From: an uncultured Isosphaeraceae bacterium
GTDB lineage: Bacteria > Planctomycetota > Planctomycetia > Isosphaerales > Isosphaeraceae
DNA: 64,000 nucleotides
Direction: 5' to 3'
Assembly (NCBI GenBank): GCA_963832405.1
Contig: CAWHUG010000001.1
Location: 375,021 to 439,020, forward strand
Numbering within the stretch: position 1 is the first letter of the stretch; each line of letters begins with the position of its first letter. Below, piece by piece: positions 24,503-63,452 of this stretch. A model generated the notes under the pieces. The model did not search any database. It saw only the letters and a list, made by a program, of their open reading frames with translations, and was not told the origin of the DNA. A program made the translations under genes and the position numbers.

Positions 24503-24517
24503 AGTCCTCGAATCCGG

Positions 24518-27255: not shown

Positions 27256-27493
27256 ATCCGGAAGAGCCCCGAAGGGGCGGCAGCGCATAGCCAGGGGCGT
27301 CAGCCCCTGGTGGGGAGTGAACGACGCGTCGACGGCGCCCCTCCACAGCCCCGCAGGGGCGACAGAAAGCGAAGCGGCGCCACGGCTTCCGTCGCCCCTG
27401 CGGGGCTGCGGAGGCGAATGGCGCGGTCGCGGTCCCGTTTCCAGGGGCTGACGCCCCTGGCTACACGCGGCCGCCCCTTCGGGGCTAAAACCA
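27256..27493. repeat. Palindromic MITE-like element, family A (compact copy)
   Basis: GCCCCGAAGGGGC / AGCCAGGGGCGTCAGCCCCTGG termini mirrored at the other end, with an internal GGGGCGACAG...CTGTCGCCCC palindrome. Confidence 0.85.
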
Positions 27494-27931
27494 GACTTCC
27501 CGGATAGCCTCTTACGCTGGCTCGACATCGGGATCGCTGACCCAGACCATTCAAGCGGCCGGTCGTGTGGTCTCCCAATGCGACGGTCAGCAGCAGGGCG
27601 CCGGTCGCCACCGCGGTTGCCGCCCTGGTTCCGGTCCACCCGGCCACCTCTTCAACTGCAACGGCCGCCGCCGAAGCCGCGCAGGCCGTGGTCCCCAGCG
27701 GCCCGTGGGCGATCACGCTCATGGCGCCGACCGTGCGCCGAGGGCGTTCTCAGCGCGGAGTTGCGACGCCGCCTCGGGCGGCTCGCCCTGACCCAGCCCT
27801 GGTCGGTATGACCGGCGGCGTCATGTTTTTCGGGTGCGGTCGTCGTGAGGTTTGATTAGGATGGACTCCCGCCAACCCGTGCCTCGATTCCAGGGAGCAC
27901 GGGGGCGGGACTCTCCGAACCATCCGCCACG

Positions 27932-29274
27932 ATGGACATACTCGACATTCTGTACATCGCGTCGCTGGTCTTCGCCAACGGGTTTTTCGTGGCCGCCGAG
28001 TTCTCTCTGGTCAAGGTGCGCACGTCGCAGATTGACTTGCTCGCCGAACAGGGCCAGTGGGCGGCCAAGCTCACCAGCAAGGCCCTGGACCACCTCGACG
28101 CCTATTTGTCGGCGTCGCAGTTGGGCATCACCGTGGCCAGCCTGGCGCTGGGGACGGCCATCCATTCCAAGGTTCAGCCGGCGCTGCAGGCCGGGTTCGC
28201 CTGGATCGGCTTGCCGATCCGGCCGGTCGTCGTCGGCACGGTCGCCTTCTCGGTCGTGCCGCTGCTGGCACTGTCACTGGTGACGTTCCTTCACATGGCG
28301 CTGGGGGAGCAGCGCCGAAGAACCTGGCGATCCGCTCGCCGCGCGGGCTGGCGCTGATCACGGCGCCGGTGCTGGTGGTTTTTTACTATCTGTTCTGGCC
28401 GGTGATCTGGCTCTTGAACACGGCCAGCAACCTGACCCTGTACCTGCTCGGGCTGGGTGGTCGAAGACCGGCCGAGTTGGTCCACACCGAGGAAGAGCTG
28501 CGGCACATCCTGGGCGAAAGCGTCGCGGGCGGCGCCTTGTCCCGAAACGAGCGGGTGATGATCGAAAACGTCCTGAACCTGGAGGAAAAAACGGCCCGGC
28601 GGGTGATGGTGCCGCGTCCCGACATCGTGTATCTCAGCCTGGCCCGCTCGCTGGAGGACAACTTGCGGCTGGTGCGGCAGGCCAGCCACACCCGTTACCC
28701 GCTCTGCGAGGACGACCTGACGACCGTCCTGGGGATGATCCACGTCAAGGATCTGTTCCGCACGGGCACCGCCGCCAACGGCCGGCTCGATCTCCGCAAG
28801 CTGGTCCGCAAAGTGCCGTTCGTGCCCGAGTCCATCCACCTCGACGCTCTCCTGCTCCAGTTCCAGCAGGATCGGGTTCATCTGGCGATGCTGCTGGACG
28901 AGTACGGCGACGTCGTCGGCATGGTCACGCTCGAAAACGTGATCGAGGAGCTGGTCGGACCGATCCAGGATGAGTTTGACCGCGAGACGCCGCAGGTGGT
29001 CGCGCTGGGCAGGGAGGTCTTCGAGGTGGATGCGGCCTGCCCTCTGGACGTACTCGAGGATATGTGCGGCGTCCCGGTGCCCGAAACCGAGGCGGAGACA
29101 GCGGGCGGCCTGATCCTGGACCTTCTGGGACGGTTGGCGCAAATCGGCGACAGCGTCGTTGTGGACGGCCATCGCCTGGTCGTGATCCAAGCCGATCGCA
29201 CCCGCATCCGCCGCGTCCGCGTCGAACCGATCGAGGCCGCGCCGGAACCGACGGATGAGCCGGACGCCGAGTGA
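27932..29274 (+). CDS. CNNM/CorC/HlyC-family transporter (DUF21 + CBS pair + CorC_HlyC); one frameshift near 28310
   Basis: DUF21 'FFVAAEFSLVKVRTSQI'. CBS region 'RRVMVPRPDIV'. C-terminal 'GDSVVVDGHRLVVIQADRTRIRRVRV'. Confidence 0.85.
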
Positions 29275-29386: not shown

Positions 29387-30630
29387 TCATCGGACGGCCG
29401 TCTGGGCCGATTCGCGAGAGCCGGAGGCGGCGCTCACGACACGGGCGTGCCGATCGTCAGGCTGTCGAGCAGGGTCGTGAGATGCTGGAGGATGCTGCGC
29501 GGTGCGCTGGTAGGTCTGGCGGTCGCAGCCGACGGGATCGGCGATGTCGCCGCCCTCGGCGTGCAGCGGCCGGACGCGCTGGGCGGCCTCGGGACAGACG
29601 TCGAGGATCGCGTCGCGGTGATCGGCGGTCATGGTCAGGATCAGGTCCGCCTGATCGATGAGGTCGGCGGTGAGCCCGCGGCTGCTATGGGATTCGAGCG
29701 CACCGCCCCAGTCGCGGACAACATCCTGGGCGTGGGACGCGGCGGGCATGCCATCGAGCGCGGCCACGCCCGCCGAGAGGACCACGTAGCCGCGCTCCGC
29801 GAGATCCTCGGGCGTGCCGCCGAGCCGTTGCGCCAGGAGGACCTTGCAGAGGGCTTCGGCCATCGCGCTGCGGCAGGTATTGCCCGTACACACGAACAGA
29901 ATCAGCCAGCCGGCGCGGCGAGTCAGTTCCTCGGCGGGGATCGGACCCGGCTGGCGGACCTCCCAGGCATCGCCGTCGAGGCGGACGACCGTCGTCGGGG
30001 ACGCCGCGCAGGATCGGGCCGCCGTCGAGGACCAGGTCCACACCGGTCTGAAGGGCCAGCGCCTCGGCCGTGGCGTCCGCACGGGCCAGGCCGCCGAGCA
30101 AGAGCGGACCGGCGAGCAGGTGCTGGATGTCGAGGACCGTCGGGTGCGCCGGGCATCGCAGACGAATCACCTGGTCGGCCGTGACCAGGCTGCGCACCGG
30201 TTCCGGCAGGCGCACGGCCAGGCTCCGTTCCAGGTTGCCACGGACCCATAACGTCAGCGGGCCGGGCCAGGATCGTCGCGCCAGGGCGCTGCCCCACGAC
30301 CGAAAGGTCGGGAACCCAGTCGGGGGCTTCGGCGGCGCCTTTGACCAGGAGCACCAGGTCGCGGCGTTGCCCCTCGTCCTGGAGCGTCTCCAACCGGGCG
30401 ACCGCATCGGGGCGCAGGCCGCTCGCCACGAATGCGTAGGAGACCTCCGTCGGCAAGGCGACCACCCCTCCCTGTGCCAGGCAGGCTACGGCGCGGTGGA
30501 TCACGTCACGGGGATCGTCGGCCCGCGCCAGATCAATCCGTTCCGGCCTCGGGCCGACCGAATCGCTCACGGGAAGGTCTCCGAGATTCCCATTCCTCAG
30601 TTCTCTTAGTTCTTCCCGGCGCCACCCCAC
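29387..30630 (-). CDS. L-threonylcarbamoyladenylate synthase (YrdC/Sua5 domain) fused to a low-molecular-weight protein-tyrosine phosphatase; at least 2 frameshifts
   Basis: YrdC 'GGVVALPTEVSYAFVASG' and 'TVVRLDGDAWEVRQPGPIPAEEL'. LMW-PTP P-loop 'ILFVCTGNTCRSAMAE' and 'DIADPVG'. Confidence 0.7.
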
Positions 30631-41396: not shown

Positions 41397-43248
41397 CTAC
41401 CCCTCCGACTTGATCAGGGCATCCTTGACGTATTTTTCGATGTCGCGGGCCATGGCGTCAAGCCGCTGCTCGGTCTGCCGTTTGATCTCAGGCAGCCGGG
41501 CGACGTCGTGGATGCCGTCGGTGGCGGTCCGCGCGAACAGGTAGAACTTGATCTTCGGCTCGGTCCCGGAAGGCCGGACGGCGAAGCGCGTGCCGGGGGC
41601 GGACAACGCGAAGATGAGCAAGTCGCCGTCGGGTTCGGGCAAGAGGCTCGGTCTTGCCTTGCGCGGCCACGGGGCGGATCTCGTGCAGCTTGTAGTCGTG
41701 GACTCTCAGCACGTCGAGGCCGCCGACGTGCATCGGCGGCAGCTCGCGGAAGTCGGCCATGAGCTGCTGGATCTGCTCGGCTCCCTTGCGGCCCTCCAGA
41801 CCCAGGTTGATCAGCTTCTCGTCGTAGTGGCCGACGTCGATGTACAGATCGTCCAGGAACTCGAGCACGGTCTGTTTTCGGTCCTTGACGGTGGCGGCCA
41901 GCTCGGCGAAGAGCAGCGCGGCGACGGCGGCGTCCTTGTCGCGGGCGTAATTGCCTTTCAGGTAGCCGTGCGACTCCTCGAAGCCGAACACAAAGCCGGC
42001 CGCGCCCGCCTGGTCGATCCGCTCGGCGATCCACTTGAAGCCGACGAGCAGGTTGTCCTCGACCCGCACGCCCTCGCGCTGGGCGATGGCCCCGGGCATC
42101 TGGCTGGTGACCAGGGTGGTGACGATGTAATGGTCGTGGCGGAGCCGGCCGGCGGCCTCGGTCTGCTTGAGGATGAAGGCCGTGAGCAAGCCGCCGATCT
42201 GATTGCCGGAAAGCGTGGTCCAGTCCCCCTTGGGATCACCCGAGACGGGCACGGCCACGCCGATGCGGTCGGCGTCCGGATCGCTGGCGATGACCAGGTC
42301 CGCGCCGGTGGTCTTGGCCTCGGCGATGGCCGCCTCCAGCGTCCGGGGGATCTCGGGGTTCGAGACGTGGCCGGGGACGTTGGGGAAGTCGCCGTCGGGG
42401 GTGCGCTGGGAGGCCAGCACGTTGACGTCCGGGAAACCGGCCCGTTTCAAGGCGGCGGCGACCGAGGTTTCCCCCACCCCGTGCAAGGGCGTGTAGACGA
42501 TCTTCAGCCCGCGCGCGTGGCTGACCGACTCGGCCACGACGGCGTTCAGGTAGACATCATCCAGCTCGGCACCGACGAGCTGGATCGAGCCGTCCGACCG
42601 GCCCTGGGCGAAGTCCTTCTCGGGGATCTCCCGGTCGGAGGCCGCCTCGACACAGGCGATGATGCCCGCGTCGTCGGGCGGGACGACCTGACCGCCGCTG
42701 GCCGCATAACACTTGAAGCCGTTATCCGCCGGGGGGTTATGCGAGGCGGTGATCATGATGCCCGCGTCGCACTTCAGGTGGCGCACGGCCGTCGAGAGCA
42801 GGGGGGTGGAGCGGGCCTCGGGAAACAGATAAACCTGAAACCCGGCCGCCGCCAGCACTTGCGCGCAGAGCTCGGCGAACGCCTGCGAATTGTGCCGGGT
42901 ATCACGGGCGATGACGCACGACCGGGGCGCATCGGCCCCTTTCCGGGCCGTGATGTAGTCGGCCAGCCCGCGGGCACTCTCGGCGATCGTCCGGCTGTTC
43001 AGGACGTTCGTCCCGACCGGGTACATGCGGCCCCGCCGGCCCCCCGTACCAAAGGGCAACACGGTATAAAACGCATCGTCGAGCTCTTTCCAGCGACCGG
43101 CCGCGATGTCCGCGGTCAAGCGTGCGCGGTACGCCGCAAAGGGCGCCTCGGTCAACCAGCGACGGATCCCGGCCGCGGCCGAAGCCGACAACGAACCGCC
43201 CGCCTCGGCCGCTCCGACGTGCTCCAGGGTCGCCTCCAGCGTATCCAT
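41397..43248 (-). CDS. Phosphoglucomutase/phosphomannomutase family protein; one frameshift near 41640
   Basis: 'GIMITASHNPPADNGFK' (active Ser), 'DPDADR' and 'GFEESHG'. The C-terminus is in ORF 41397-41642. Confidence 0.85.
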
Positions 43249-43419
43249 GAACCGTGATTCTCCGGGATGCGTGCGGGCTGGACAATCGAGCCCCTCAAAT
43301 TATCGCCAAGCTCGCGGAACCCGCAAGTCCAGGCCGCGCGCTGCGCGCTCGGCGCGAACCTGCGACCGGCCCGGGAATAGCACCGTAACCCCTTGTAAGG
43401 AATCACGTTTAGCCGCGAT

Positions 43420-45719: not shown

Positions 45720-45905
45720 GGCGGCCCTGGCGGTCCTTCACAATCGATGCGCCCCCGCGGAACACCGCGACCAGCCACGCAAGCAAGGGTGCATGCATAG
45801 AGTGCCGACGCGGAACTGGGTGGGTTGGCACCACCACATGACGTTGTCGCTGCTGGCGGCGTGGTTCTTGGTGGGCGAGACGCGGCGCGGGAAAAAAGCA
45901 GGCAC
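45720..45905 (+). mobile_element. C-terminal remnant (about 60 aa) of an IS701/IS4-like DDE transposase
   Basis: 'RNWVGWHHHMTLSLLAAWFLVGETRRGKK' matches the conserved 'RsW.GWhrH.tL..lAhaFL' tail of these transposases. No upstream DDE core was found. Confidence 0.4.
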
Positions 45906-46042: not shown

Positions 46043-46137
46043 TATTACCCCGGCAAGAAAGTAGGTCGGACAATCCTGTCCGACAGGCCGGGGGAGTCGG
46101 ACAGGATTGTCCGACCTACTTTCTTGCCGGGGTAATA
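46043..46137. repeat. Palindromic MITE-like element, family D (TATTACCCCGGCAAGAAAGTAGGTCGGACAATCCTGTCCGAC | mirror)
   Basis: Near-perfect 42-bp arms. A second copy lies at 54327-54429. Confidence 0.85.
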
Positions 46138-46188: not shown

Positions 46189-46807
46189 CTACCGGCGTGC
46201 CTCTTCCGGGGGGCCGTGTCGACGCCAATCTTCCCAGGTGTCGATGTCCCGCCGGACGGGCAACTGGCCGACGGACCAGCCGTGGGACTGCGCAGAGGGC
46301 CAGGTGAGCGGCGAGGGTGGACGGCGTGGACCACGGAATCTTCTCGAAGAAACTCGGAAGATCCCGGGCCGTCCCCACGAGGTAATACCCACCGTCTTCC
46401 GCCGGGCCGAAGACCGCATCCTTCTGCGCCAAGGTCTCGAACGCCGTGCGGACCAGAGGTGTCTCCAGCTCGAGGCAGTCCGTCCCCACCGCGACCACCG
46501 GCGCACCGACCGCGTGGGCCATCGCGAAACCAACGCGCAACCGCTCCCCGAGATCGCCCGCGGGCTGCCGCCACCAGTCGTCCGCCAGCGTCCGCCACGG
46601 CGCGAAGGCCGCTTCCGGGGCGCCGTCGAAGTACCCGACGACGCGGGTCGCATCCCGGAGCGGTTGGAGCTGGTGGAGCACCAATCCAATCCATTCCCGG
46701 TACAAGGCGGCCGCCCGCTCCGCGCCGAGGGACGCGGCCAGACGTGTCTTCACCGTCCCGGGGGACGGGTACTTCAGCAGGACGAGCAGGGTGGGCATTC
46801 CGGTCAC
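46189..46807 (-). CDS. DUF2064-family (TIGR04282-like, GT-A-like nucleotidyltransferase fold) protein; one frameshift near 46290
   Basis: 'MPTLLVLLKYPSPGTVKTRLA', 'GPAEDGGYYLVG' and the C-terminal 'LPVRRDIDTWEDW' (in the alternative frame 46189-46689). Confidence 0.7.
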
Positions 46808-46825
46808 TCCGCATTTCCGGGGCCG

Positions 46826-47862
46826 TCAGGGAACGACTGCGCCCTGGCAACCGGAGCCGGCGCCGGCCGTGCAGCCGTAGCAGTGCTGGCCCACCCGGAT
46901 CGGCCGGCTCCGGAGCGATTCCGCGAAATCCCCGATGTGCCGCGGCCAGCCGGGGGCGAGTGGCAGTTCGAGCATCTGGTTGAAGTCGCAGTCGGAGAGA
47001 TGACCGTCCCAGCCGACCGACAGGGTGGTCCGGCACATCAGGCCCGCGACCGTGGCCGGGTTGAACGCGGCGATCAGAGCCTCCATGTATTGATCGAAAG
47101 CGCCGGTCCGCACGAGATCGTCCAGGAACCGGCTGATGGGCATGTTGGCGATCGTGTGGAGACGGTTGAAGACGATCCCGTAGCGGGCCGCGAGTTCGCG
47201 CCGGTAATCGGCTTCGAGTGTGTCCTGTTTCGGCGGGAGCCGCGGTCCGGCCGGGTTGTAGACGAGCGTCAGATCGAGATCGCTCCCCGGCCAGCCATAT
47301 CCCACTTCGTTCAGCCGGCGCAGAGCCTCGATCGACCGCTCGAAGACGCCGTCGCCCCGCTGGGCGTCGGTATTGCCCGCCGTGTAGCACGGCAGCGACG
47401 CGACGATCTCCACCCGCTGCCCGGCCAAGAATGCGGGAAGGTCCTGATATCCCGGCGCGCACAGGATCGTCAGGTTGCACCGGTTGATGACGTGCGCGCC
47501 CAGACACCGGGCCTCGGCGACCAACCAGCGGAAGTGCGGGTGGAGCTCGGGGGCCCCGCCGGTGATGTCCACGCACGGAATCCGGCGCGCGAAACGGCCT
47601 CCAGGCAAAGCTGCATCGTCGCGCGGCTCATCGCCTCGCGGCGGTCCGGCCCCGCATCCACATGGCAATGGCGACAGGTCTGATTACACCTCTTGCCGAC
47701 GTTCATCTGGAGGATCTGGATGCCCGCGGCGCGCAGGGGATCGAGACTGTGCTCGGACAGGACCTGTCCGAAGGGCGCGTGCCGGTCCCGGGGAGCGAGG
47801 ATCTCGCGTTGCCGGGCGGCGTCCGAGAAGGGATGTCGCTGATGAAGGAGGCTCGATCCCAT
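46826..47862 (-). CDS. Radical SAM / Cys-rich domain protein of the ArsS-like family (TIGR04167-like); one frameshift near 47590
   Basis: 'GKRCNQTCRHCHV' (Cx3Cx2C), 'ITGGAPELHPHFRWLVAEARCLGAHVINRCNLTIL' and a C-terminal Cys-rich 'CYGCTAGAGSGCQG'. Confidence 0.75.
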
Positions 47863-47997
47863 TCCGTCTCCTCAAGAGGGCCTCATCGGGTGCGGGGTGG
47901 GAGTGCCATCCGGGCCTGGTTTGCCACCGGTCTCTCATGTTACCTTCGGTCGCGGGTTCCACACGAGAGGGCCGGGTCGAGGGGATGATACGAGATC

Positions 47998-48750
47998 ATG
48001 GAGAACACCCCGCACGAAGCGCGCAATCCCGCCGTGTCGATCGTGATCCCGACTCTCGACGAGGCGGACCGGCTCGGCGCGACCCTCGACGCGGTGGGAC
48101 GGTTGCGGACGGGGGTTGAAGTCGAAGTCCTTGTCGTCGACGGTGGGAGCCGCGACGAGACGATCGCGATTGCGGAGCAGCACGGCGCCACCGTCGTCGT
48201 CGCCGCGCGCGGTCGCGGAGCGCAGCTCCACGCTGGCGCCGGAACCGCGGAGGGCGCCGTGCTCTGGTTCCTCCACGCCGATACACATCCGCCCCTCGAT
48301 GGCATCGAACAGATTCTGGAGGCGCTCGAAGACCCGCGCGTGGTTGCCGGGAACTTCCGGCTGGCCTTCGACGGTGGCGGCCGGTCGGCGCGATTCCTCA
48401 CCTGGCTCTATCCCCGCCTGCGCTGGCTCGGGATTCGCTACGGCGATTCGGCTCTCTTCGTGCGCCGCGAGGTGTACGCTCGGGCGGGCGGATTCCGCCC
48501 GTTGCCGATCTTTGAGGACCTGGATCTGTTGCGGCGACTCCGCCGATCCGGGCGCTTCGTGTGTGTTCCGAGTACGGTTGTCACCTCCGCGCGGAATTTT
48601 GAGGGCCGGAGCTTCGCCGCGGTGTTCACGCGCTGGACAGCGCTCCAGATCCTCTTCTGGCTGGGCGTGCCGCCACGCGTCCTCGGCCGGTTCTACGGGC
48701 GGCGCGGCCGGAGATGGCGTCGGACGCCGCGGGTGGAGAGCGATGAGGGC
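47998..48750 (+). CDS. Family 2 glycosyltransferase (TIGR04283-like); 3' end uncertain
   Basis: 'VSIVIPTLDEADRL', 'VLVVDGGSRDETIAIA' and 'DSALFVRREVYARAGGF'. The annotated ORF continues as non-native sequence into the next gene. Confidence 0.7.
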
Positions 48751-48805
48751 CTGGACCGCCACGAAAATGGGCGTGGGCGTGAAATTGACCACAAGGAGCC
48801 TTGCC

Positions 48806-51353
48806 ATGAAGCGTCGCGTGTGCGTGTTTTCGATCGTGACCGCGCTGTGCGCACTCGGCGGCCCCGGCCGGGCCCTGGACCTGGCCGACATCCCCGCCGA
48901 CGCCCCCGACGACGCGATCATGGCCCCGCCGGCCGAGATCGCCGAGATGGCCGCGTGGGCCGGGAGTGGCTTCGAAAGCAAGCCGCCGCAGGCCGCGCCG
49001 GACCGGGTCACGCTTCAGGTCAAGCGGCAAGACCACAACGTCATGCGGCTCCGGCAGTCGATCATGGAGTCACCCATCCGCCTCCAGGGCCGCGCGTTCG
49101 CTCATGGTCTCGGCACGCACGCCAACAGCGAGATCGTCGTCGGCTTGCCCCGCGGCGCCCAAAGATTCAAAGCGATGGCCGGTCTCGACGACAATCCCGT
49201 GACCCGCAGCAGCGGCAAGGGCAGCGTGCAGTTCGTCGTGGAGATCGGCGGCAAGGAGGCGGTGCGCACGGCGACCTTGCACGTCGGCGACGAGCCCGTA
49301 GCGATCGATGTGCCGATCCCCGCGGGCACGTCGCAGATCGTCTTGAAAACCGATGCCACCGCCGACGGCACCGGCTGGGACCATGCCGACTGGGCCGATG
49401 CGCAGGTCCTTGCGGTTCAAGGCCGAACATGGTGGCTCGATCAGGGCGACTCCGGGCCGATCCTCGCTCCCGGGGGGCCACCGTTTTCGTTCGTCCTTGG
49501 CGGCAAGTCGTCGGCGCAACTCTTGAAGGACTGGCCGCGCACGGTTGAGAGCAAGCCGCTGCCGGGCAAGACCGTGCACCAGGTCGCGTGGACCGATCCT
49601 CACTCGGGCCTGCGCGTGGCGGCCGAGCTGGCGGTCTACACGCGCTATCCGGCGGCCGACTGGGTGTTGCGTTTCGAGAACACCGGCACAAACGACAGCG
49701 AGATCATCGCGGACATCCAGGCCCTGGATGTCTCGCTCCGGACCAGTCAGGCGGACCGCCCGGGTATGCTGCACACGCTGGCGGGCGACGATTGCAGCCC
49801 GCGGTCATTCGTGCCGCTGGACATGCCTCTCGCCGCGGGCAGCGCCCTTCACCTGGCGCCCAACGGCGGACGTCCGTCCAATGGCACGTTCCCGTTCTTC
49901 AATTTCGAGTATGATGGCCGCGGGCTGTTCGCGGCCATCGGCTGGTCCGGCCAGTGGGCGGCCGCACTCGAACGCGATCGGACCGGATCGACGCGGCTCC
50001 GCGCGGGCATGGAGCGGACCCACCTCCGGCTGCACCCGGGCGAGTCGATCCGGAGCCCGCGGATCCTCCTGATGTCCTGGCAGGGCGACCGGCAGGCCGC
50101 GCACAACCGTTTCCGGCGGCTGATCCTGTTCCACTACACGCCGCGGCAGGAGAACCGCCCGCTGGCCGTACCCATCTTCTGGCAGGGATACGACCGCTAC
50201 AACGCCCACCCGTCCTGGCCTACGGAAGCCGGCCAGCTTCATGCCGCCGCAGTGGCCGCCAAAGCGGGCTGCGAGTTCCTCTGGCTCGACGCCGCCTGGT
50301 TCACCGGCAACTTTCCGAATGGGGTCGGCAACTGGTTCTGCAAGCCCGCCGCGTTCCCGCACGGCCTCAAGCCGGTCAGCGATGCCTGCCACAAGCTGGG
50401 CATGAAGTTCATCGTCTGGTTCGAGCCCGAGCGGGTCGCCCCCGGCACGGCGATCGCGCGCGAGCATCCCGAGTTCGTCTCGGGAGGCACCAACGGCGGC
50501 CTGTTCAAGCTCGACGACCCGGCCGCCCGGCGCTGGCTGGCCGACCTGCTCATCGCGCGCATTCGAGATTTCGGCATGGACTGGTACCGCAATGACTTCA
50601 ACATGGACCCCCTGCCCTTCTGGCGGCAGAACGACCCGCCCGAGCGCCAGGGCATGACCGAGATCCGCTACGTCGAGGGGCACTACGCGCTCTGGGACGA
50701 GATCCGCGCGAGCCGTCCCGGCCTGTTCATCGACAACTGCGCCAGCGGCGGCCGGCGGATCGACCTGGAGACCATCCAGCGCTTCGATCGCCCTCTGGCG
50801 GAGCGACACGGCCTGCACCACGGGCCGCGGTGACTGGCACCAGTCGCAGGCGTTCGGCATGAACTTCTTCCTGCCGCTGCACGAGATCTGCGCCTGGACG
50901 CCTGACGCCTACGAGATGCGCAGCACCTCGGCCGGCGCGATCGTGCAGTACGATTTTCTGGCCCCGGGCTACGCTCCCGAAGCCGCCCGGCAAGCCATCG
51001 CCGAGGTCAAGGCAAACCAGAAGTATTTCTATGGCGATTTCTACCCTCTGACGGCCTGCTCGACCGCGCCCGACCAGTTCCTCGCCTACCAGATGCACCG
51101 GGCCGACCTCGACGCGGGGCTAGTGCTGGCCTTTCGCCGCGCACAGTGCAACACCCTGGCGCTCAGTGTGCCGCTCGGCGGTCTGAAGGCCGACGCCACG
51201 TACGAGGTCACGTTCCTCGACGAACACCGCCAGGCGACCGTCAAGATGATGACCGGCCGGATCATGGCGCACGACTTTCCCCTCATGATCCCGGAACGCG
51301 GGGCCAGCCTGCTGGTCCGTTATCATGAGGCCGGTCCGCGAAGCCCCCAGTGA
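48806..51353 (+). CDS. Secreted alpha-galactosidase (GH36) with an N-terminal NPCBM carbohydrate-binding module; one frameshift near 50830
   Basis: AAGGAG RBS and signal peptide 'MKRRVCVFSIVTALCALGG'. NPCBM-like 'RLQGRAFAHGLGTHANSEIVV'. GH36 'FIVWFEPERV' and 'FIDNCASGGRRIDLE'. The C-terminus is in ORF 50859-51353. Confidence 0.8.
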
Positions 51354-51609
51354 GTGAGGAATGGACCGCCAGCGCGGCGGGGTGGCCGGGTCAAGAACGA
51401 GTGGAAAAGAAGAGACTGTAGCAAGGCGATCGGGACCCGTCTGGCCAGCGGTTGGCTCGGTGCCGTGTGGGACAGCCGCCCCCGGCTGTTCTGATCCGGG
51501 ACAGGGACAGCCGGGGGCGGCTATCCCACATTCGGCTGATTCCGATCCACCCGGCCACCCGTTCGCTGGAACTCACGCCAGAATTCCTGTGTGGCGTGCC
51601 GGGGACTCC

Positions 51610-53395
51610 TCAATGCCCCGGCGCGTCGATTCCCTCTCCCGCAGAGAGAGCCGAAACGGCGCGTTGCGTCTTGGGTATGCTCCGGGACGTGGTGTTGGCC
51701 GCAATGCCTGCGACCCGTACCGCCGTTTCGGGACCGTCGGGCGAGTTCGTTTCGAAGAATGTCGGCGGCTCATAGGTCCAACCGTTCCGCAAGCGTTGCT
51801 CCTCCGACCGCAAGGCTTCTTCGAGGGAGGGACCGACGATCGCCGCGGCCAAGCGGGCGCGCCGACCGAACTCGGCATACAGTTCGTCCTGGACTTCGGA
51901 GATCAAGCGCGACTGATGGGGATCGTCCTGGTATCGGCGCTGGGCGGCCCAGAGCGCCCCCGCATACCCAACGGCGAGAGGGGAGGCCTCATGCGCGAAG
52001 CGATCGCGGATGCGCGGATTGGAGTGGTCCTTGTACGACTTCCAACCGCGCAGCAGCGTGCGGATGATGCGGACGACACTCGGGCCGTTGACCGCGAAGT
52101 CCCGCTCGAACGCGCGCAGCAGGAACTCGCCTTCCTGCCCCTCCCGGATATGAGGGTGCCGGAAATTGAACTTCAGTTGTCCGTGAATGTCCGCCACCGG
52201 TAGTTCGGCCACGCCCAGCAGCGTGCCCTTGGCCTCCTCCGCGGAGTAAAGCGGAGTTCCCGGGATCGGCGTGTAGAGCATGAACTGATGAAAATCCGAG
52301 TTATGGGCGACCGCGTGATCGATGACTTCATCGATGTTCCCGGGCGTGTGCTCCTTGAGGCCGATGATACTGGAACCGAGCACGTGGATGCCGTGGCGTT
52401 GCAGGGCGCACCCGTTGGATCGTGTCGGTCCGCGCAGCTTCGCATACTGGGCGTCCTTTCCCTCCAAGCCCATCCAGACCCACGTCACGCCGAGTGCGAC
52501 CAGTTGCTCGATGGTGTACTGCTGGAGCACGTCCACGGAGCTGAAGACCTTCAGGTGCCACGGCTTGCCGTGCTCCTCCATCAGTCGAAGCAGACGGAGC
52601 GTACGCTCCTTGTTGATCAAGAAGTTCTCGTCCATGACGAAGAAGCCGCGGACGCCCAGGTCCGACTCCAACGCGCACATGATCTCGAACAGTTCGTCGC
52701 CGGTCCGGTAGAACTCGATGTGTTTTCCCTTGCCGCCGAACAGGGCCGACGTGGAGCAGAAATTGCAGCCCTTCGGACATCCCACGGACGGAATGAGCGT
52801 CGCTTCGTCCAACCCGGGGTGGTCGTGAAGGGACACACCCATGATCCGTGACGAAAGGTACGTGATGCTCCGGGGATGAAGAACCGGTTGGTTCTCATCC
52901 TCTCCCAGGAACCTGCGCATCCAGCGCACGCCTTCTCCCTGAACGACATGGTCCACGTTGGCGCATCGTGTCAAGTCCGGCACGTTCGCGATGTGTCCAC
53001 CGACGACGATCGTGGCCTTCGGCTGGTGCTTGCGGATCAGGCGGCACATCCTCCGCACCTTGAACAGGTTCGACATGATCGAACTGATGCCGATGATGTC
53101 GTATTCCCTCGTCCTGAGTTCCTCGACGAACCTCTCTTCCGAGGGAAAGTCGAGCAGCGTGCAGGGGGCCTCGATGTTCACCTGGATGAGCATCAGGCCC
53201 CAGGACCGATGAAAGGCGCGCAGCGAGAAGGCGTGCTGGACCCGTGTCACCTGATTGTGATAGAGCTCCATCGGGTTGATCAGGCGACTGCCGTACGGAT
53301 CATCACTGCGCAAACGGGCCGAAGACGCTGGTCAGCAGCACGCGCGCTCGCGAGCCGAGCGGATGGGCGGGATGGTGGACAGCAGGTTCGGTCAC
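51610..53395 (-). CDS. B12-binding-domain radical SAM enzyme (class B); the N-terminal 30 codons sit in another frame (GTG at 53395)
   Basis: B12-binding 'YDIIGISSIM...KATIVVGGHIA'. rSAM 'GCPKGCNFC'. Recovered N-terminus 'RVLLTSVFGPFAQ'. A lower-GC promoter-like tract at 53400-53500 sits upstream. Confidence 0.8.
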
Positions 53396-54043
53396 GGCTT
53401 TTCCTCTTGCATGCAAATTACCAACTCCCACCAGGCCGTCTTCTTGCCGTCATCTTCATAAAATACACCTGAGAAGACAATAGACACATCAGACAATGCC
53501 GACCGTCGGAGTTCTCCGTGGCACCGCGAACGAAGCGACTTGCGGTCGATATCCGTCGTCACCCCGGGCAACGGTTCGGCCCGGTCGATCGTCGCGGTCG
53601 CCGCCGACGAATGGCACGATCACCCTGACACGGCGCATCTTTCCTATCCTTTCCTTTTTCCCGCCATGCGCAGCAACTCTCTCTAGTATCGGCTCACCGT
53701 CGAGGTTATTCCAGTTCAGGCGAACGCCACAGGCGTCGTCATGATCAGCGGGATGTCCATCTTCCCGGGCGCCCACGTCGTGGTTACCCGAAATCCCGTC
53801 TTCTCGTCCAGGAGGGATCGGATGGCCGTGCGGCAGCCCCAAGGGATTCAACGCCGCATTCTGGGCCAGGGTTTCGTGGGTACAGGTGTTCCCGTGCGGG
53901 GCACGCCCAGGTTTTCCCGCGTAATCCTTCCACCGGCCCTGTTCGCGGCGAATTACTGATCGCTGCGAGGACGTGACCGCGGTGTCTTGGCGGGCCGGCG
54001 TCGCCGACGAGAGTTGGGGCTGCGGCGTCTCGCCGGCGATTAG

Positions 54044-54322
54044 GACAACGACGGGCATGTCGATCTTTATGTCACCAATTTCGGGCCGAATCGGCTCTAC
54101 CGGAACCGGGGGGATGGCACTTTCGAGCAAGTGGCCGAACGGACCGGCGTCGCGGATCCCGGCTGGAGCACCTGCGCCAGCTTCTTCGATGCCGACGGCG
54201 ACGGTGACCTCGACCTGTATGTCGCACATTACGTTCGGGCCTCGATGGACGACGTCGATGTTGAAGCGCTCCGCCTGGGAGCCGAACATCGCGAAGCCGT
54301 CGTGGTGCTTGGAGGTGATCAC
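54044..54322 (+). pseudogene. Fragment of an ASPIC/UnbV-type FG-GAP repeat protein: in-frame TAG inside the conserved GDYDNDG motif, a 1-nt deletion, and truncation by the family D MITE
   Basis: '[63 protein letters not shown]' preceded by 'GD' then TAG (54041-54043). The frame then runs into element D2 and stops inside it. Confidence 0.5.
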
Positions 54323-54326
54323 CAGA

Positions 54327-54429
54327 TATTACCCCGGCAAGAAAGTAGGTCGGACAATCCTGTCCGACTCCCCCGGCCTGTCGGACAGGATTGTCCGACC
54401 TACAGGAGATCTTCTTTGCCGGGGTAATA
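54327..54429. repeat. Family D palindromic MITE-like element (copy 2)
   Basis: Same arms as 46043-46137. Confidence 0.85.
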
Positions 54430-54835
54430 CTTCATGCCCGCGTCCTGCGCCAGTTCGCCCTGCCTCGGCGTCGAACTTCACCGGGTTGAGATGACGCGGA
54501 TCGCGGACCACCACCTGGCCTGGGCGCAGGGCTTCGTGGACAGCGCGGTGCCCGGAGTGGTTCGCAACAAGTGGCTCGAACGCCGGCACCAGCTCCACCA
54601 CGTCGCGCGGGCACCGCGACCGCAGTCCCGAGTTCCAGACGGCCTTCATGAACGGCACGGGCACGATGGTCTGGGACAACGTGTTCGGTAGCTGGGTCGG
54701 CTTTCGGGGCGAAGTGTCTGTTGACCTGGGCCGGACTGGATCGCTGCGCCACCGTCGGCTTCCGCTACGTCGTGGATTTGAAAGGCTAGAGCGACTTCAC
54801 GGATGCGTTGGGCACAGGAGTGGCTCCCCCCTCAC

Positions 54836-55022
54836 CCGCCTGCTGCGCAGGCGACCTCTCCCGCGAGGGGAGAGGTGGGACGAACCGGCCGTCCGAACAC
54901 CTCTCCCCTGGCGGGAGAGGTCGGGTGGCATGCCCACGTCTGCGTGGGCATGGTCCCCCGCGCCGGGGCGCGCCGACATGCCCACGCAGACGTGGGCATG
55001 CCACCCGGACACAAGGGGTTGC
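54836..55022. repeat. Family E cluster of nested palindromes (CTCTCCCGCGAGGGGAGAGG, CTCTCCCCTGGCGGGAGAGG, CATGCCCACGTCTGCGTGGGCATG x2)
   Basis: Four hairpins in 190 bp, read directly. Intergenic. Confidence 0.7.
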
Positions 55023-55072
55023 GGCTCCGCCGCGCAACGAAAACAGGCCCAGGAGACGCGCGACACGTACAC

Positions 55073-57640
55073 TTATTCCGCCACGTCACCGAGGCCGACG
55101 TCGATGCCCTGGCCGCCTTCTGTTTGGTGACAATGAACGGCGACCAGGATCTTGCGCCGGGTTTCATCGCGGCACGCGCTTCGCGCGAGATTTCCAGCGG
55201 CACATAGCTCGTCGTGAAACCCCCTTCCGTCGCGGCCGGGATGCCGTTGACGTAAATCTCCACATCCTCGTCGTGATAGCACGATGAATTGGAGATTGGG
55301 ATGCGCTCCCTCGGGGATCGTGATCTCGCCGCGCAGCCAGATGTCGTCGGTCTTCCATTCCGATGTGCTGGACGAATCCCGGCGGACGCGTGCCGAAACC
55401 GGCGCGGCCTTCCTTCCAACCCGTCATGTCGAAATCGGTCTTCGTCCAGTTGTCCGCGGGTTTCCGCGTCGTGTAGTGCCACGTCTGCTGGGTGGGCACG
55501 ACCATGCTGGTTTTCGGCGGCGTGGGCAGCGGCGACCAGTTCGCGGGCTTCAGGTGATCGCGGGAGGCCCACTTCTTCCAGGTCGCGCGGTCGGTCAGCA
55601 TCTTGATGAAGAATCCGCCGACAACCGGCCGGGCGTGCATGCCGCCGCTCTGGACCTTGTCGGTCACATACGAATCGGCGATCGGATCACGCGCGGTCGT
55701 TTCGTTCAGGTAGTCGTAGATCGGCGCGATGATGGCTTCGAAGTCAGACGGCTTCTCCGCCAGCGTCGCGCTCCAGAACGACCAGTCGGTCTTCGTCAAG
55801 TGCGTGCGCGAATCGAGCGGCACGCCGTAGCGCAGCATCACGTTCTTATAGTGCGCGACTTCCTTCCGCGCGACGGACGGCGGGAAGACGTTCAAGCCGA
55901 GGATGCGGTCCCAGACGAGGTTGTATTTCTGGCTCCAGGTTCCCGGCTTGTCGAACGCGAGCCGGTAATGATCCCCCTCGGCGGCGACCTTCATCCAGTG
56001 CTCCGCGTCGGCTTTCGCCAGGCCGGCGTACTTCTTCGCGGTGTCCTCATCGCCGCGCATCCGGCACAGATCGCCGTAGGCCGCGAGGCCGAGGATCGCC
56101 TTCACGGAGAGATTCGCGTTGTGCGCGAGATGGCCCATGAAATCGTCCGTGCAAAGCTGCTCCTCAGGGTCCAGGCCGTACTTTTCCAGGTACTTCGCCC
56201 ACTGCGTGAGCGCCGGCCACCAGGGCGCGACAAAGTCCGCGTTGCCTTCCGCGTGCGCGATGGCGTCGCAGAGGATCAACATGTTGCCGCTCTCCTCCAC
56301 GGGCATGCCCTCGCCGCCGTCATCGCGGCCGGTGACGATCGGATACGTCCCCAGATCGTGCGGCGCGTTGGGGAATTTCCAGTGCGGTGATTCGGAGTAC
56401 ATGAGCACATGAACCAGTGATGCCTTCGCCAGGGTCGGACTGAGCAGGATCCAGATCGGGTCCATGGGGAAGAACACGTCCACCGTCGCGATATCACCGT
56501 TGCTGGTGTTTTCCTTCGTGAAGAACAGCGGCTGCTTGTTCGCATCGGCGGCGAGGCCGTTCGCGGCGACGCATTCGCGGTAGGAGAGCGCGGTGATCTT
56601 CGCATATTTCTCGCCACCGAGCCTGGTCATGTCCGCCATCAACTCGTTGTCGAACGCCTCGCATCGCGCGAGCAGCTTCGCGTAGTCCTGCGACGCGGTC
56701 TGCAAGAGTCCGGCGATCTTCACGCCGTTCCGCGCCCAGTAGGGGAGCAGCTTCTGGCCGAAATACTTGATCGCGAAGATCTCGTCGTACGCGACGATCA
56801 CCTGCCGCTCGACGGCTTGTCCGCCGACGCTGCCCAGCGCGAACGCGAATGCCATCACGGGCTCGGCGTCGCTGGCCGCGCGGGGCATGCGCGCATCGTC
56901 GGCCGCGGGCAGGCCGCCGTTCTCGGCGAACGTGTTCTCCAGAACCGCGCTGGCGCCGATCGCGGATGTCGATTGCCCGCGCGGCGCAGCGGCGTAGGCG
57001 TAGCCCCAGTTGATGCGGTGATCGTCGCCACTGGAGCCGAGAACACTCTGCGCTTGCGTGCCGCGCGCAAGAGCGTCAAATCGCCGGCCGTTTGCCGCGA
57101 CCACTCGACAAGCTCCGTGGTCTTGTTCACGGCAAGTTGCGAGCTCGTGCTGTCATAGAGTTCAATCTTGTGCTTCGCGCCGTCGCACGAGCGGACATTC
57201 CAGGTGATGTAGCTCAGCGGCCACGAATAAACGTCGAGATCGTCGGGCAGCGCGGGCTGCATGAAGGTCATCGTCACGTGGACGCCCGCGTCCTCGAACT
57301 CGTAGATGCTGCGTGTCGGCAAGACCACGACGGACTTCTGCGTGAAGGCCGGCGCCGTTTTCGGTTCCACGCCCATCAGCCGGTACGTCTTCCCGTCGAT
57401 GCGGATCAGGCTCACGAGCGCATGGTCGTGCCGTGTCCAGTGCTTCGTGGTCGCGTCGTTCAGATGGTCGGCTTCCGACCAGATGCTGAGGAACGGATTG
57501 TACGTGACGAGGGGAACCGCGGGCGGTCGGAAATCGGCCCGTGCCGAGAACGCGATCCCCAGGCTGCTGGCAAGCAGTGCGAGGACAAGCCGCGCGGCGC
57601 AGTCTTGGAGATTCTTCTCATCGAGGGACTCCTTGGCATG
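55073..57640 (-). CDS. Secreted glutaminase-A-like (GtaA; DUF4964/DUF5127/DUF4965/DUF1793) six-hairpin glycosidase-like protein with a C-terminal beta-sandwich; at least 3 frameshifts
   Basis: N-terminus 'VPLVTYNPFLSIWSEADHLND...WTRHDH'. Core 'FFPMDPIWILLSP'. C-terminal 'KILVAVHCHQTEGGQGIDVGL'. Signal peptide 'LVLALLASSLGIAFSARA'. Confidence 0.7.
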
Positions 57641-57760
57641 GACATCGGATCGGTCGAGGCACAGTCAGACGCAACGTTCGTGGTCGGGCGATCCCGGCTC
57701 AATAAACTAGCACAGAACGTTCCCCAGTTCACGCCCTGAGAGGATGTACGAGAAGGGGTC

Positions 57761-57894: not shown

Positions 57895-58909
57895 CTACGC
57901 AGTCGAGGGAAGAGAGTCGAGCGGCTCGCGTCGCAGCACCACCGGAAGCGATGCCGGCGCTCGGATCGCGAATCCGCCGATCCACTCCACCTCGCCGACC
58001 AGTTCGACCGCGCTCGTCATGCTGAGCAGCGCGTCCGTCGCGACCGCGACCGCCATGCGGATCAACGGCGCACCGGGACAGGAGTGCGCTCCTCCGCCGA
58101 ACGCCAGGTGCCCCGCGGCGTCGCGGCGGACGTCGAGCCGGCCGGGCTCCGGAAACCGCGCCGGGTCGTGGTTGGCCGCCGAGAGCATCAGGATGACGCG
58201 ATCGCCCGGGGCGACGCGCGCGCGGCCGATCGACAGTCTCGGCGAGCGCGTGCCGGAAGACCGCGCGGGCGGGGCCGGCGTGACGCAACAGCTCTTCGAC
58301 CGCCCCGGGCATCAGTTCGGGCTGCGCTGCGCAAGCGGTCGGCCTCATCCGGACGCCGGAACAGCTCGAGCCACGCGCTGGCGAGGAAGCACGGCAGCGT
58401 CTGCGAGAGCGCGACGTAGGTTTGCACATCGGCGGACGCACCCGCACCCGGAAAGCGACTCGCCAGCTCCGCGACCGCGGCCTGCGCCCGCGGCGGAAAT
58501 CCGGCATCCGTCGCACGAGGCCGCCGCCAGGAACACGTCTCGAGCGAGCCGGTCGAGTCGTTCCGCGTCCGCGGGCGGGGCGCCGGTCGCTCGGACCGCG
58601 AGCGTGACCGACCAGGGCCGGGCGAACGCCCCCACCAGGTCCACGGGCACGCCCGCGGGCAGACGCTCGGTCAGGACGCGGGCGGACGCCTCGGCCTCGG
58701 CGCGCCAGGCGGCCAGCCGTGCCGGCGGACAGCGCGTGCGCGGCCGCGTCGCGCACCGCGACGTGCGCCGCATCCCCGTCGGCGCTCGTGCCCGAGACCG
58801 ACAATCGCGGGTCGCGCAGGGCGGCGGAAACGTCCGCGTAGCGGGTCAGGACCCAGGCGCCGAGCGCGGAATCGAATCGCGCCTCGCCGGGCTGATCGGC
58901 CTCATCCAT
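57895..58909 (-). CDS. Cytochrome P450; at least 3 frameshifts
   Basis: Heme-binding loop 'FGGGAHSCPGAPLIRMA' (57895-58188). N-terminus 'FDSALGAWVLTRYADVSAALRDPRLS'. The middle segment is in ORF 58345-58773. Confidence 0.7.
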
Positions 58910-59169: not shown

Positions 59170-59405
59170 TCTGTTCCAAAAGCCCCGAAGGGGCGAAAGT
59201 GAATAGCCCGGGGCGTCAGCCCCGGGAACCGGAAACGACGCGCTACAAGCCCTCTCCGAAGCCCGAAGGGGCGGCCGATGTCTTTGTCCCACAGGCCCTT
59301 CTGTCGCCCCTTCGGGGCTTCGGAGGAAGACTCTCTCGTCGCAGCTTTCCGGTTCCCGGGGCTGACGCCCCGGGCTATTCACTTTCGCCCCTTCGGGGCT
59401 TTTGG
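59170..59405. repeat. Family A palindromic MITE-like element (copy 3)
   Basis: GCCCCGAAGGGGCG...ATAGCCCGGGGCGTCAGCCCCGGG mirrored, with an internal GGGGCGACAG-type palindrome. Confidence 0.85.
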
Positions 59406-59461: not shown

Positions 59462-62400
59462 TCATCGCGGCTTTCCGCTTGTCTGCCCGATGCGAAGAAT
59501 GCGGTTTCCCCAGGGGCCGTCCAGAGGTACGTCGAGCGTCGTCCCGGCCGATTCGGCCAGGATTTCGCCGGTCTCGGCATCGGACACGTGCCGGCCCGCG
59601 GGCGCTCCCTCGATGCGCACCGTCGCCGTCACGGGCGTCTCGGACCAACTGGCCAGGACGAGGAGCATCGCGTCCGGGTCGCGGCGAGTCAAAGCCAGCC
59701 ATTTCACCGAACCGGGCGTCACCCGCACGAGGGGATGATCCTCCCAGTAGTTGTGGACCGTCACCACGGGGTCGCCGTACCCGAAGTCCCGGAGCCATTT
59801 CTCTTGCGGCCCGGTGCGCTGGATCTCGTGCACCGCCCGCAGGCCCCACTCGATGCGATCGGCCTGGTCCCTGGGCAGGGAGCGGATGGTCTTGTTGTCC
59901 CTCCCGGCAACTTCATAGAGCGAGAGCGGCAGGTTGCCGACCTGGCGGCCGATGGTCTCCGCCTGGAGCCATTCGGGCGCGAACGGCCGCGCGACGGCCA
60001 GCTCATGATCCAGGTCGACCGTGCCCCAGGTGTGGACCGGCAGGACGAGCGTGTTGGTCATGTGCAGCGTCCATTCGAGGGGCTCGGGCCGCTCCCGACG
60101 ACGCTGCTGGAGCAGGTGCCAGACCCGCTTGTGGTACTCGCGCACGTTCCAGATGGTCAAGGCCGGCTGGATGTAGCCGTCCTCGGCACGATAGGCGGCG
60201 GTCGTCAGGGTGTTATAGGAGGGATACAGATATGTATTGTCCCAGTACAGGCTGATACCGCGCCGGAGCCATTCGTTGGCCATCCACACGCCGAAGTCGG
60301 CGTAGGAGCGGGGGAAGGTGATCTCGGAGATGTCGCTGAGCGCACGATGACCGCCGCGCAGATCGAGGCCGTCCGGTTCGTTGCGCGCCCGCGGGCCGTC
60401 GTCGGTCTTCCACTCGTCCTGGTAGACGATCCACTCGGGGCGGGAATGCGCCGCGCGCATCTCCTCCTGGTAGACCGCCAGGGGGCGGGATAACCCCACG
60501 TCTTTGGCCCGCTGGGCGAAGTGGTGCATGAAATAGGTCCAGTCGGCCTCGCCGTGGACGCGCGGCGGTTGATGCCGCCGGGCGTAATCGGCCAGCCAGT
60601 CCTCGTCGAACGGCTGACCGCGGTGCGCCTCCAGCACCTTCTCGACGATCGTCCAGTCGTCGGCGAACGGTCCCTGCGAGGCGCATTGCAGACCGCCCCA
60701 CGGGACGACCGCCAGCCCTCCCGGCGCATCCGGCAGGCGCCGGCGCCAGTCCTCGGGCATCGGCTTGGTGGGTGACGCCTGAAGACCGACGGTGAGCGTG
60801 CGGGGCTCGGTCAGGACCGCCGGCCGATTGATCAGGTACGCGCGCAGGATCAACCGGCCGTCCTCGCGGATCAACTCCTGGATCGGCGTCTTGCTCCGGG
60901 CCTTCTCGGTGATCCAGCCGCGGTCGTTCTCGGCGAAGACGGCCAGCCCGCGTTCGGCCGCGCCGAGCCAGATGTAGGGGACGAAGGCGTTGCGCCACCG
61001 CGCCGAGCGGGCGGCTTTCGTGCCGTCCCAGACCACGCCCTGTCCGGCCGGCGTCGCGCCCGAGTAGTTATTTCGGAGCCCGTCGCCGATCGCGTGCATC
61101 AACGGGACTTCGGCGTCCTTGAGCGGGATCTCGATCCAGAGTTTGCGGACCTCGACCGGGGATCGCCCCGGCGCCAGCGTCAGATCGACCCGCATGCAGC
61201 CGTCCACCTCGATCGCGGAGCGTGCCTTGAGGGTGACAGCATCGGCCTGGGCGGTCCCTTCGAACACGGCGCGCCCGGCGGTCCTCGTGGCGAGATGGCC
61301 GTCGGACCGGGTCCAGGTACCGGGACCGTCCGCCGTCTCGAAGCGCACTGCGCATCGGGGCGGCGAGCAGGTCGCGGCCGAGGGTCTGGACCTCGTCCCA
61401 CAGTCCGAAGTCGTTCCACGTCATCGTGCGGCCGACCACCGCGACCCGCCGCCCTTGGACCGTCACCGGCTCGAACGGCGGGAAGACCTCGTCGGTGATC
61501 CCCAGCGTGTTCCCCACCCAGGGGAAACGCCGCGCCAGGAACGGGAACGACCGCCCGGGCCGTTCCCGACCGTCCCGGGCGACGAGGATCGGCGTCAGCG
61601 TGTACGCGCCATCCGCCAGTTCGGGAAGTTCGAACTCGCCGACCAGGGGCTCGGCCCAGGCCGTGCGGACCTCGCTCACGAGCGTGTTCTTCTCGTCTCG
61701 CAGCGCGAAACGGACGGCCGCGGCGTCGTCGGACACGTCACGAGGTGTCACCGTGTAACGGATCGCCTGCCGGCTCGGCAGGTACTCGCCGATCAGGTCG
61801 AGTGCCGGCAGCCGCACGTCGGCGATGAGCTTCGCCGGGTCGCGATAGCGCCAGTAGGCATTGGACGCCTCCTCGGACAGGAGCGCCCGGTCGTAGATCC
61901 GGACCTCGTCGATCAGGCCGATCGTCTCGGAGGCGTTGAAGACGAACCGATCGGCCTCGGTCCGGCCGTTCGGGACGAGCGGGCGGCCGATGGTGTGTCC
62001 CCTCAGCGTCCCGTCCAGATAGATCGCGATGTCGGGACCGCGCCAGGTGAAGACGACGTGATACCAGCGTCCCGGATGCATCTCCACGGGCGCGGGGACG
62101 AAGTGCAGGCCCTGCTCGCGGTCGTCGAAAAACAGCGTCGGCTCGTGCGAGGCGCCGTTGAGCAGGTAGAAGGGGAACGGCTCGCCGAGGAAGTAGCGGT
62201 TGCGATCCGAGAGGCTGTTGACGCCCGTCGGCCGGAGCCAGAATTCCAGGCTCCCCTCGGCGCTGCGGAACAGCCCGGGGGCCGTGATGGTGATCTTGCC
62301 GGCGTAGGCTTTGCCCCGCACACCGGGACGGAACGCGCCTGCACCGAGCTCGACCTTCGCCCCCGGCACCTCGGAAATTGGCTCGTCGAGCGGGAGGCTC

Positions 62401-63238
62401 ACGCGAGCCGCGTGCGCGGCGACGAAGTGGGGCGGCCCCGACGCGATGGCCCGGGTCGCCTTCGGGTCGGTCCAGGAGTCGTCTTCAGGAGGCCAGAATT
62501 TGAGCACATTCCGATGCACCCGGACTTGATCCATCAGGCCGGTCAAGCCGGCGTCGCCGGTGTCATCGTTGCCGATGAAGATCGCTGGCGGCTCGGTCTC
62601 CGTGAGGTCCTGGAGCCCTTCTCCGTAGTGCAGCGGCTGATCGGCGACCATCCGGCCGTCCACGAAGAGTCGCCGGCCCGGTCCCGAGATGCCCGCCACG
62701 TGGACCCACTTGCCGAGCGGCACCGCGGCGGGCGGACTGCTTGTCCGGAGGCGACGGCCGGAGGCGTTGACCGTCTCCAGGTGGAGCCCGCCCCGATTGT
62801 CCACCGCGAGCGCGAAGCCCTGGCTTCGGCCCGCGCCCGCCGCCGCGCGGCGGAAGAGAACATAGCCGTTCTGCTCGGGGTACCGCTCCAGCTTGACCCA
62901 CGCCTCCAGGCTCACGAGTCCGCCCGCGAACGCGGCGCGCGGCTGGCAGCGAACGCCGCCCCTGCCGTTCAGCCTGAGCCCCTTGCCGAAACGGCCCTCC
63001 TCGACCACGACCGCGCCCGGGGTCGTCTCCACCCGCGCGACCGGACCCCCGGCCTGGACCGGCTCCCCGTCGAACGACAACAGCACGTACGTGTTCCCGT
63101 CATCCGGGTCCGGCCGGTACTCCGACCAGAAGGCCACGTCCGTGGCCAGACCGGGGCGCCGGTCAGGAGCATCAGCATCATCGCCCCCAGCGAGATGAGG
63201 GGGCGCAGGCCGGTTGTGGCAGGGCCGAAGCAGAACAC
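59462..63238 (-). CDS. Large secreted protein: signal peptide, two LamG/concanavalin-like domains and a C-terminal glycoside-hydrolase-like region of unassigned family; 2 frameshifts
   Basis: Signal 'ISLGAMMLMLLTGAPV' (alternative frame at 63130-63238). LamG-like 'LEAWVKLE...LHYGEGLQD' and 'LEFWLRP...RIYDRAL'. The C-terminal 628-aa ORF has no family I can name. Confidence 0.6.
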
Positions 63239-63452
63239 GGGTCACTCCGGGAGGTCAAAAAGAAGGCCGGGCGGGTATCACGGCGCTCCGCCGCGGGAAC
63301 GATCACCGTCGGCGCGGCCGACGTGGCCGTAAGGATAGCCGAGGTGTCTTGTGTCGGGAACCCGGTACACCGAAACGGGTGCGGGAGACCCGGGGCGCCG
63401 CGCCACGGCGAACCACCTCTCTGGAAGAGCGGTTCCCGCTCGAACCTGGCTG

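Follow-up and report, generated by a model that had tools for sequence, protein, structure and literature searches.

A probable arsenosugar biosynthesis cassette and its chance neighbours in an uncultured Isosphaeraceae bacterium

A block of three adjacent genes at 46189 to about 48710 in a 64,000-nucleotide stretch of DNA from an uncultured Isosphaeraceae bacterium (GenBank assembly GCA_963832405.1, contig CAWHUG010000001.1, positions 375,021 to 439,020; this 64 kb stretch is hereafter called the window) is, in our reading, an instance of the arsenosugar cassette named in NCBIfam. The three genes encode ArsS, which belongs to the radical S-adenosylmethionine (SAM) enzymes, a GT-A-like protein of the DUF2064 family, and a family 2 glycosyltransferase (GT2). 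They are followed by genes for a GH36-type glycosidase and a B12-binding radical SAM enzyme, both of which this reading takes to be unrelated to the cassette, and it takes the frameshifts that interrupt four of the five genes to be assembly errors; we assign the reading as a whole a probability of about 0.8. The trio itself is a known cassette with a function that has by now been assigned, and as such is an ordinary finding. In a preliminary description of the locus it had been called a cassette of unknown function, a label that is out of date, since NCBIfam assigns the families to arsenosugar biosynthesis and ArsS has been characterised biochemically, and that the arsenosugar assignment replaces.

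Because the G+C content of the window is about 67%, mechanical lists of open reading frames (ORFs) are crowded with spurious frames; coding frames were picked by third-position GC first and by family searches second. The ORF calls and family searches confirmed the positions and strands that had been proposed for the five genes. On the minus strand, ArsS (345 aa) occupies 46826–47862 and the DUF2064 protein (about 206 aa) 46189–46807, with the DUF2064 gene adjoining arsS and beginning 19 bp past its stop codon. GT2 is encoded on the plus strand from 47998 to about 48708 and is separated from arsS by a divergent spacer of 135 bp (47863–47997, as set by the start codon coordinates). The 3' end of the GT2 gene is uncertain, since the first in-frame stop lies at 49548; its homologues align across 48004–48672.

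Family assignment of the three cassette genes

All three genes match their NCBIfam models above the curated cut-offs, as the preliminary description had expected. For ArsS, where the cut-off of the equivalog model TIGR04167 is 300 bits, the C-terminal ORF by itself reaches 362 bits before any correction, and the protein restored by correcting a single indel (see below) scores 442 bits across profile positions 2–303 of 303. Its C-terminal part matches the Pfam family DUF3641 (PF12345, E=3e-51), which bears out the proposed architecture of a CX3CX2C radical SAM enzyme with a Cys-rich C-terminus. We aligned the corrected protein with 17 homologues, a near-gapless alignment of 18 sequences in which the radical SAM motif CNQTCRHC (C59, C63, C66) and five further cysteines (C277, C292, C328, C331 and C339) are invariant; the corrected ArsS retains all invariant residues. 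Some members of the family are selenoproteins, and the enzyme encoded here is the cysteine form rather than the selenocysteine form. The nearest relative that we found (P0002) is 76% identical. Given the equivalog-level match and the conserved cysteines, we infer that this ArsS adenosylates dimethylarsenite as the family enzyme does.

The DUF2064 protein matches TIGR04282 (cut-off 134 bits) with 148 bits as it stands and with 169 bits, over profile positions 1–189 of 189, once an indel near its C-terminus is corrected. It also matches PF09837 (E=4e-27) and, among proteins of known structure, the structural-genomics protein 3cgx (E=7e-21). GT2 matches TIGR04283 (cut-off 182 bits) with 217 bits over positions 1–221 of 221, as well as PF00535 (E=5e-20), and its matches in the PDB are 9omh, the glycosyltransferase GpgS and dolichyl-phosphate mannose synthase (DPMS).

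Both proteins also show more distant likenesses. DUF2064 is weakly similar to CofC, the 2-phospho-L-lactate guanylyltransferase (E=0.006, far under the CofC family cut-off), and GT2 is similar to MftF (E=1e-16) and to GpgS (E=3e-11), again far under the respective family cut-offs, as is its match to DPMS, so that DUF2064 does not belong to the CofC family, nor GT2 to the MftF, GpgS or DPMS families. Taken together, the CofC likeness of one protein and the MftF, GpgS and DPMS likeness of the other suggest a scheme in which a substrate would be activated and then transferred onto a small acceptor. That the two proteins act together is indicated by their natural fusion, since in 6 of 160 other ArsS loci (sampled as described below) DUF2064 and GT2 form a single uninterrupted ORF (L001, 6257–7441; L029, 11055–12347; L082, 744–1931; L097, 1284–2576; L101, 8506–9795; L110, 6341–7693).

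Arsenosugar synthesis and the neighbourhoods of ArsS

NCBIfam names TIGR04167 "arsenosugar biosynthesis radical SAM (seleno)protein ArsS", and gives both TIGR04282 and TIGR04283 the name "arsenosugar biosynthesis glycosyltransferase". In Synechocystis, arsS is co-transcribed with arsM and its enzyme takes the first step that commits the ArsM product to arsenosugar synthesis (Xue 2019), and the purified enzyme converts dimethylarsenite to 5'-deoxy-5'-dimethylarsinoyl-adenosine (DDMAA) by a redox-neutral radical adenosylation (Cheng 2021, Angew Chem 60:7570). In the literature, adenosylation of dimethylarsenite is demonstrated for the Synechocystis enzyme only.

For these families it is established, outside the window, that the methyltransferase ArsM turns arsenite into dimethylarsenite; ArsS then cleaves SAM reductively, and the 5'-deoxyadenosyl radical attacks the arsenic, with DDMAA as the product. 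The two GT-A-fold proteins may finish the pathway by putting a glycerol-type or lipid acceptor in place of the adenine of DDMAA or of a re-activated arsenoribose. The DUF2064–GT2 pair are candidates for this conversion of DDMAA to arsenosugars, a role that is modestly supported by the fusions described above and by the company that the two genes keep at other ArsS loci.

To see which genes accompany ArsS elsewhere, we sampled 80 loci in species-representative genomes and another 80 in metagenomes (160 in all), fetched up to 10 kb of flanking DNA on either side (2.08 Mb in total), and queried the flanks with the proteins of the window and with recurrent neighbours obtained by clustering. The representative of one recurrent cluster is TIGR04169, "arsenosugar biosynthesis-associated peroxidase-like protein" (176 bits), and that of a second is an ArsM-like methyltransferase. 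ArsM-like genes lie near arsS at 78 of the 160 loci, TIGR04169-like genes at 51, DUF2064 at 34 and GT2 at 22. ArsM or TIGR04169, when present, is usually encoded directly upstream of ArsS. DUF2064 and/or GT2 stand beside ArsS at 35 loci, so that the co-occurrence of TIGR04282, TIGR04167 and TIGR04283 that had been noted for this trio is real, and at 31 of these 35 loci ArsM or TIGR04169 is present as well. As a side observation, among the first 80 loci (L001–L080) the upstream gene is ArsM-like mostly in Planctomycetes and Nitrospira and TIGR04169 mostly in Bacteroidota and Acidobacteriota, and the two occur together in just 4 of the 80.

Compared with the closest known systems, the locus has both likenesses and differences. 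The Synechocystis sp. PCC 6803 arsM-arsS pair includes an enzyme of the same family (TIGR04167), with the same CX3CX2C motif and the same Cys-rich DUF3641 C-terminus, and the same reaction is to be expected; there, however, arsS stands with arsM, whereas here arsS is followed by the DUF2064 gene and faced by GT2. Of the four families in the NCBIfam arsenosugar set (TIGR04167, TIGR04169, TIGR04282 and TIGR04283), three are present here, adjacent and above cut-off, while TIGR04169 was not found in the window, and GT2 is divergent rather than co-directional. The locus of the nearest ArsS relative has the same divergent arrangement of GT2 against ArsS–DUF2064.

Several points weigh against our reading. 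A tblastn search of the 64 kb window, in which each neighbour family was represented by up to 40 of its members, returned no ArsM-like, TIGR04169, ArsR, MerA-like (FAD disulfide oxidoreductase) or DUF547 gene; nothing in the window is therefore seen to supply the ArsS substrate, which speaks against a complete pathway at this place. Glycosyltransferase genes beside ArsS that lack both ArsM and TIGR04169 form a rare layout (4 of the 35 loci that bear them). The roles proposed for both GT-like proteins follow from a naming by context and should be taken as putative, and our literature search found no paper testing TIGR04282 or TIGR04283. The part of the reading that concerns the frameshifts, finally, is drawn from the indel pattern. 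An LMWPc protein encoded at 29390–30166 was set aside as an arsenic gene, its match to ArsC being weak (46 bits against a cut-off of 174).

The ArsM-less setting also invites the idea that the trio has become uncoupled from ArsM and adds its 5'-deoxyadenosyl or ribosyl unit to some other metalloid or nucleophile. This would fit the lack of arsM and TIGR04169 across the 46 kb to one side of the trio and the 16 kb to its other side, the equally ArsM-less layout around the nearest relative, and the existence of selenoproteins in the family. The enzyme is, however, 52–70% identical to ArsS proteins that directly adjoin ArsM, its match to TIGR04167 is at equivalog level, and an arsM gene may lie elsewhere in the genome, and we hold a non-arsenic substrate to be very unlikely.

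The GH36 glycosidase and the B12-binding radical SAM enzyme

Downstream of GT2, the plus strand encodes a GH36-type glycosidase with an NPCBM module (48806–51353), and the minus strand a class B radical SAM enzyme (51610 to about 53401). The domain architectures that had been ascribed to both are borne out. The glycosidase matches NPCBM (E=6e-29) and Melibiase (PF02065, E=2e-21) in Pfam and has an N-terminus resembling a signal peptide; after its two frames are joined, its best relative in the PDB is the alpha-galactosidase AgaA (4fnr, E=1e-25, residues 260–674). By inspection, the motifs that would carry the nucleophile and the acid/base aspartates, YRNDFN and GGRRID, are present. The protein looks like an ordinary secreted planctomycete glycosidase.

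The second enzyme matches the Pfam families B12-binding (E=2e-12) and Radical_SAM (E=4e-9), and has the plan common to HpnJ/HpnR, BchE, PhpK and AprD4, namely a B12-binding domain at the N-terminus and, after it, a radical SAM core that has the motif CPKGCNFC. The likeness extends to general architecture only, since the protein falls under the cut-offs of the HpnJ, HpnR, BchE and PhpK subfamilies; its best NCBIfam match, HpnJ, reaches 65 bits against a cut-off of 578. It belongs to an unnamed family whose members are 65–82% identical across Planctomycetes (Pirellulales, Thermoguttaceae, Bythopirellula), a strongly conserved stand-alone family of B12 radical SAM enzymes that keeps no constant company of neighbouring genes and may deserve a study of its own.

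It had been proposed that the five genes form one pathway that tailors an envelope glycan or glycolipid containing galactose, in which the B12 enzyme would act in C-methylation. The genes are indeed contiguous with short spacers, several of them encode sugar-related folds, and the five of them, with no others, lie between two copies of a palindromic element. Across the 160 ArsS loci, however, a homologue of the B12 radical SAM enzyme occurs at none and a GH36 homologue at one, the latter (L039) being an acidobacterial metagenome-assembled genome in which GH36 lies 5 kb from ArsS and glycosyltransferase genes are absent. The locus of the nearest ArsS relative has sigma-70 factor and WD40 kinase genes beyond GT2, and neither GH36 nor the B12 enzyme. 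The B12 enzyme's own relatives, four of which were inspected, stand in four unrelated contexts, none with ArsS, glycosyltransferases or GH36; none of the five contexts inspected combines the genes. In a single metagenome sample, moreover, the 76%-identical ArsS and a 78%-identical homologue of the B12 enzyme lie on different contigs. Since the coding strand switches three times along the block, the five genes also do not constitute one operon. The proposal thus fails the test that had been set with it, co-localisation of all five in further genomes. We therefore regard the five-gene pathway as extremely improbable; the trio has GH36-NPCBM and the B12 radical SAM enzyme beside it by chance, and gene adjacency alone misled the first reading. 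Hardly any more credible, in our view, is a variant in which the module, split off from ArsM and TIGR04169 in planctomycetes of this lineage, would add a 5'-deoxyribosyl unit, containing arsenic or not, to an envelope lipid or glycan, with GH36-NPCBM acting on the same polymer.

The bracketing element itself was found by a repeat search. It is a perfect 95-nt palindrome, with 42-nt arms, an 11-nt loop and TA at each end, that occurs at 46043–46137, just downstream of the DUF2064 gene, and again in inverted orientation at 54327–54421, within the remnant of a GH29 fucosidase gene. Two copies in the window compare with none expected, and the DNA fold has an energy of -54.4 kcal/mol (z = -17.9). 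The element looks like a miniature inverted-repeat transposable element (MITE); it was found in none of 164 fetched loci. A peptide spliced across the 54327 copy matches positions 88–134 of PF01120, and since the two GH29 halves are contiguous across it, this copy is a solo insertion. A composite transposon or mobile block bracketed by the palindromes was accordingly rejected, the more so as the genes do not travel together elsewhere.

Frame breaks, debris around the block and other features of the window

Single-base indels interrupt four of the five genes (DUF2064, ArsS, GH36 and the B12 enzyme), and the 7.2 kb contain six of them or more. In ArsS the radical SAM motif CX3CX2C lies in one ORF (47470–47862, profile positions 2–55) and the Cys-rich DUF3641 part in another (46826–47668, positions 53–303); tblastn with the 76%-identical relative, together with a reading of the DNA, places one missing base near 47581, between GCCGGA and TTCCG. 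On the 2.5-Mb source contig, ArsS is annotated as a 248-aa fragment. DUF2064 has one indel near 46289–46296 that shifts the frame of its C-terminus, and its homologues from L014, L084, L088 and L092 align in frame -1 as far down as 46292, the alignment going on in frame -2 between about 46296 and 46216. GH36 carries one extra base near 50783–50786, after which the conserved stretch IALWRSD resumes in the next frame. At least three indels affect the B12 enzyme by alignment and three-frame reading, one at about 53305 and two that offset each other at about 52430 and 52405; its N-terminus HPLGSRARVLLTSVFGPF sits in a different frame.

Could these be real pseudogenes, decaying amid mobile-element debris? 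The frameshifts in four genes, the MITE-like copies on either side, and the nearby remains of a truncated GH29 gene, together with an FG-GAP fragment and an unconfirmed transposase-like peptide, would all suit such a history. The frame-shifted genes nevertheless contain no premature stop codons, every invariant ArsS column is kept, and the compensating indels in the B12 gene lie about 25 nt apart, as is typical of base-calling noise. The same single-base frame switches also split distant housekeeping genes: domain IV of pgm lies in a separate frame, gcvT lacks its N-terminus, and the CorC/CNNM transporter gene is split. Elsewhere in the window, a P450 gene retains only its C-terminus, a GtaA-like gene is split within DUF5127, a GH123-like/LamG gene is split, and a sulfatase-modifying enzyme is truncated; examples of split or truncated genes across the window lie at 9810–10286, 24521–25438, 27860–29271, 41400–43299, 55167–57664, 57898–58311 and 59465–63254. 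The apparent rate across the assembly is roughly one indel per 1–2 kb. Because such splits recur in housekeeping genes throughout the window, we consider real pseudogenes unlikely and attribute the frameshifts, with high confidence, to long-read assembly error rather than to biology, from which it follows that in the organism itself the genes are probably unbroken. With an assembly this rich in single-base indels, apparent pseudogenes or odd ORFs in the window should be distrusted.

In a glycine cleavage cluster on the minus strand (20954–25438), gcvT, gcvH and gcvPA are followed by an F420_oxidored/ProC-like ORF (22056–22718), with gcvPB coming after it; this ORF may be either a genuine insertion or a product of frame errors.

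Around the five genes, the interval that separates the B12 enzyme gene from the GtaA-like one (53490–55100) is a patchwork of fragments. It contains the N-terminal remnant of the GH29 fucosidase gene on the minus strand, a fragment with FG-GAP/VCBS repeats on the plus strand (53990–54240), and two G+C-rich hairpins (54852–54923 and 54922–55007). On the other side of the block, adjoining the first palindrome copy, a plus-strand peptide at about 45790–45900 (GWHHHMTLSLLAAWFL / NWVGWHHHMTLSLLAAWFLVGE) shows a likeness to the C-terminal end of a DDE transposase; it has no Pfam match, and the likeness is unconfirmed. An Rfam scan at gathering score returned no riboswitch or other RNA element at 45–55 kb.

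Elsewhere in the window, Rfam Acido-Lenti-1 (RF01687) has six matches above the gathering score, which form three inverted pairs spaced 175–357 nt apart from start to start (4447–4492 with 4804–4849, 27265–27310 with 27441–27486, and 59181–59226 with 59355–59400). Such pairs suggest a small mobile element with terminal inverted repeats more than they suggest free-standing small RNA genes.

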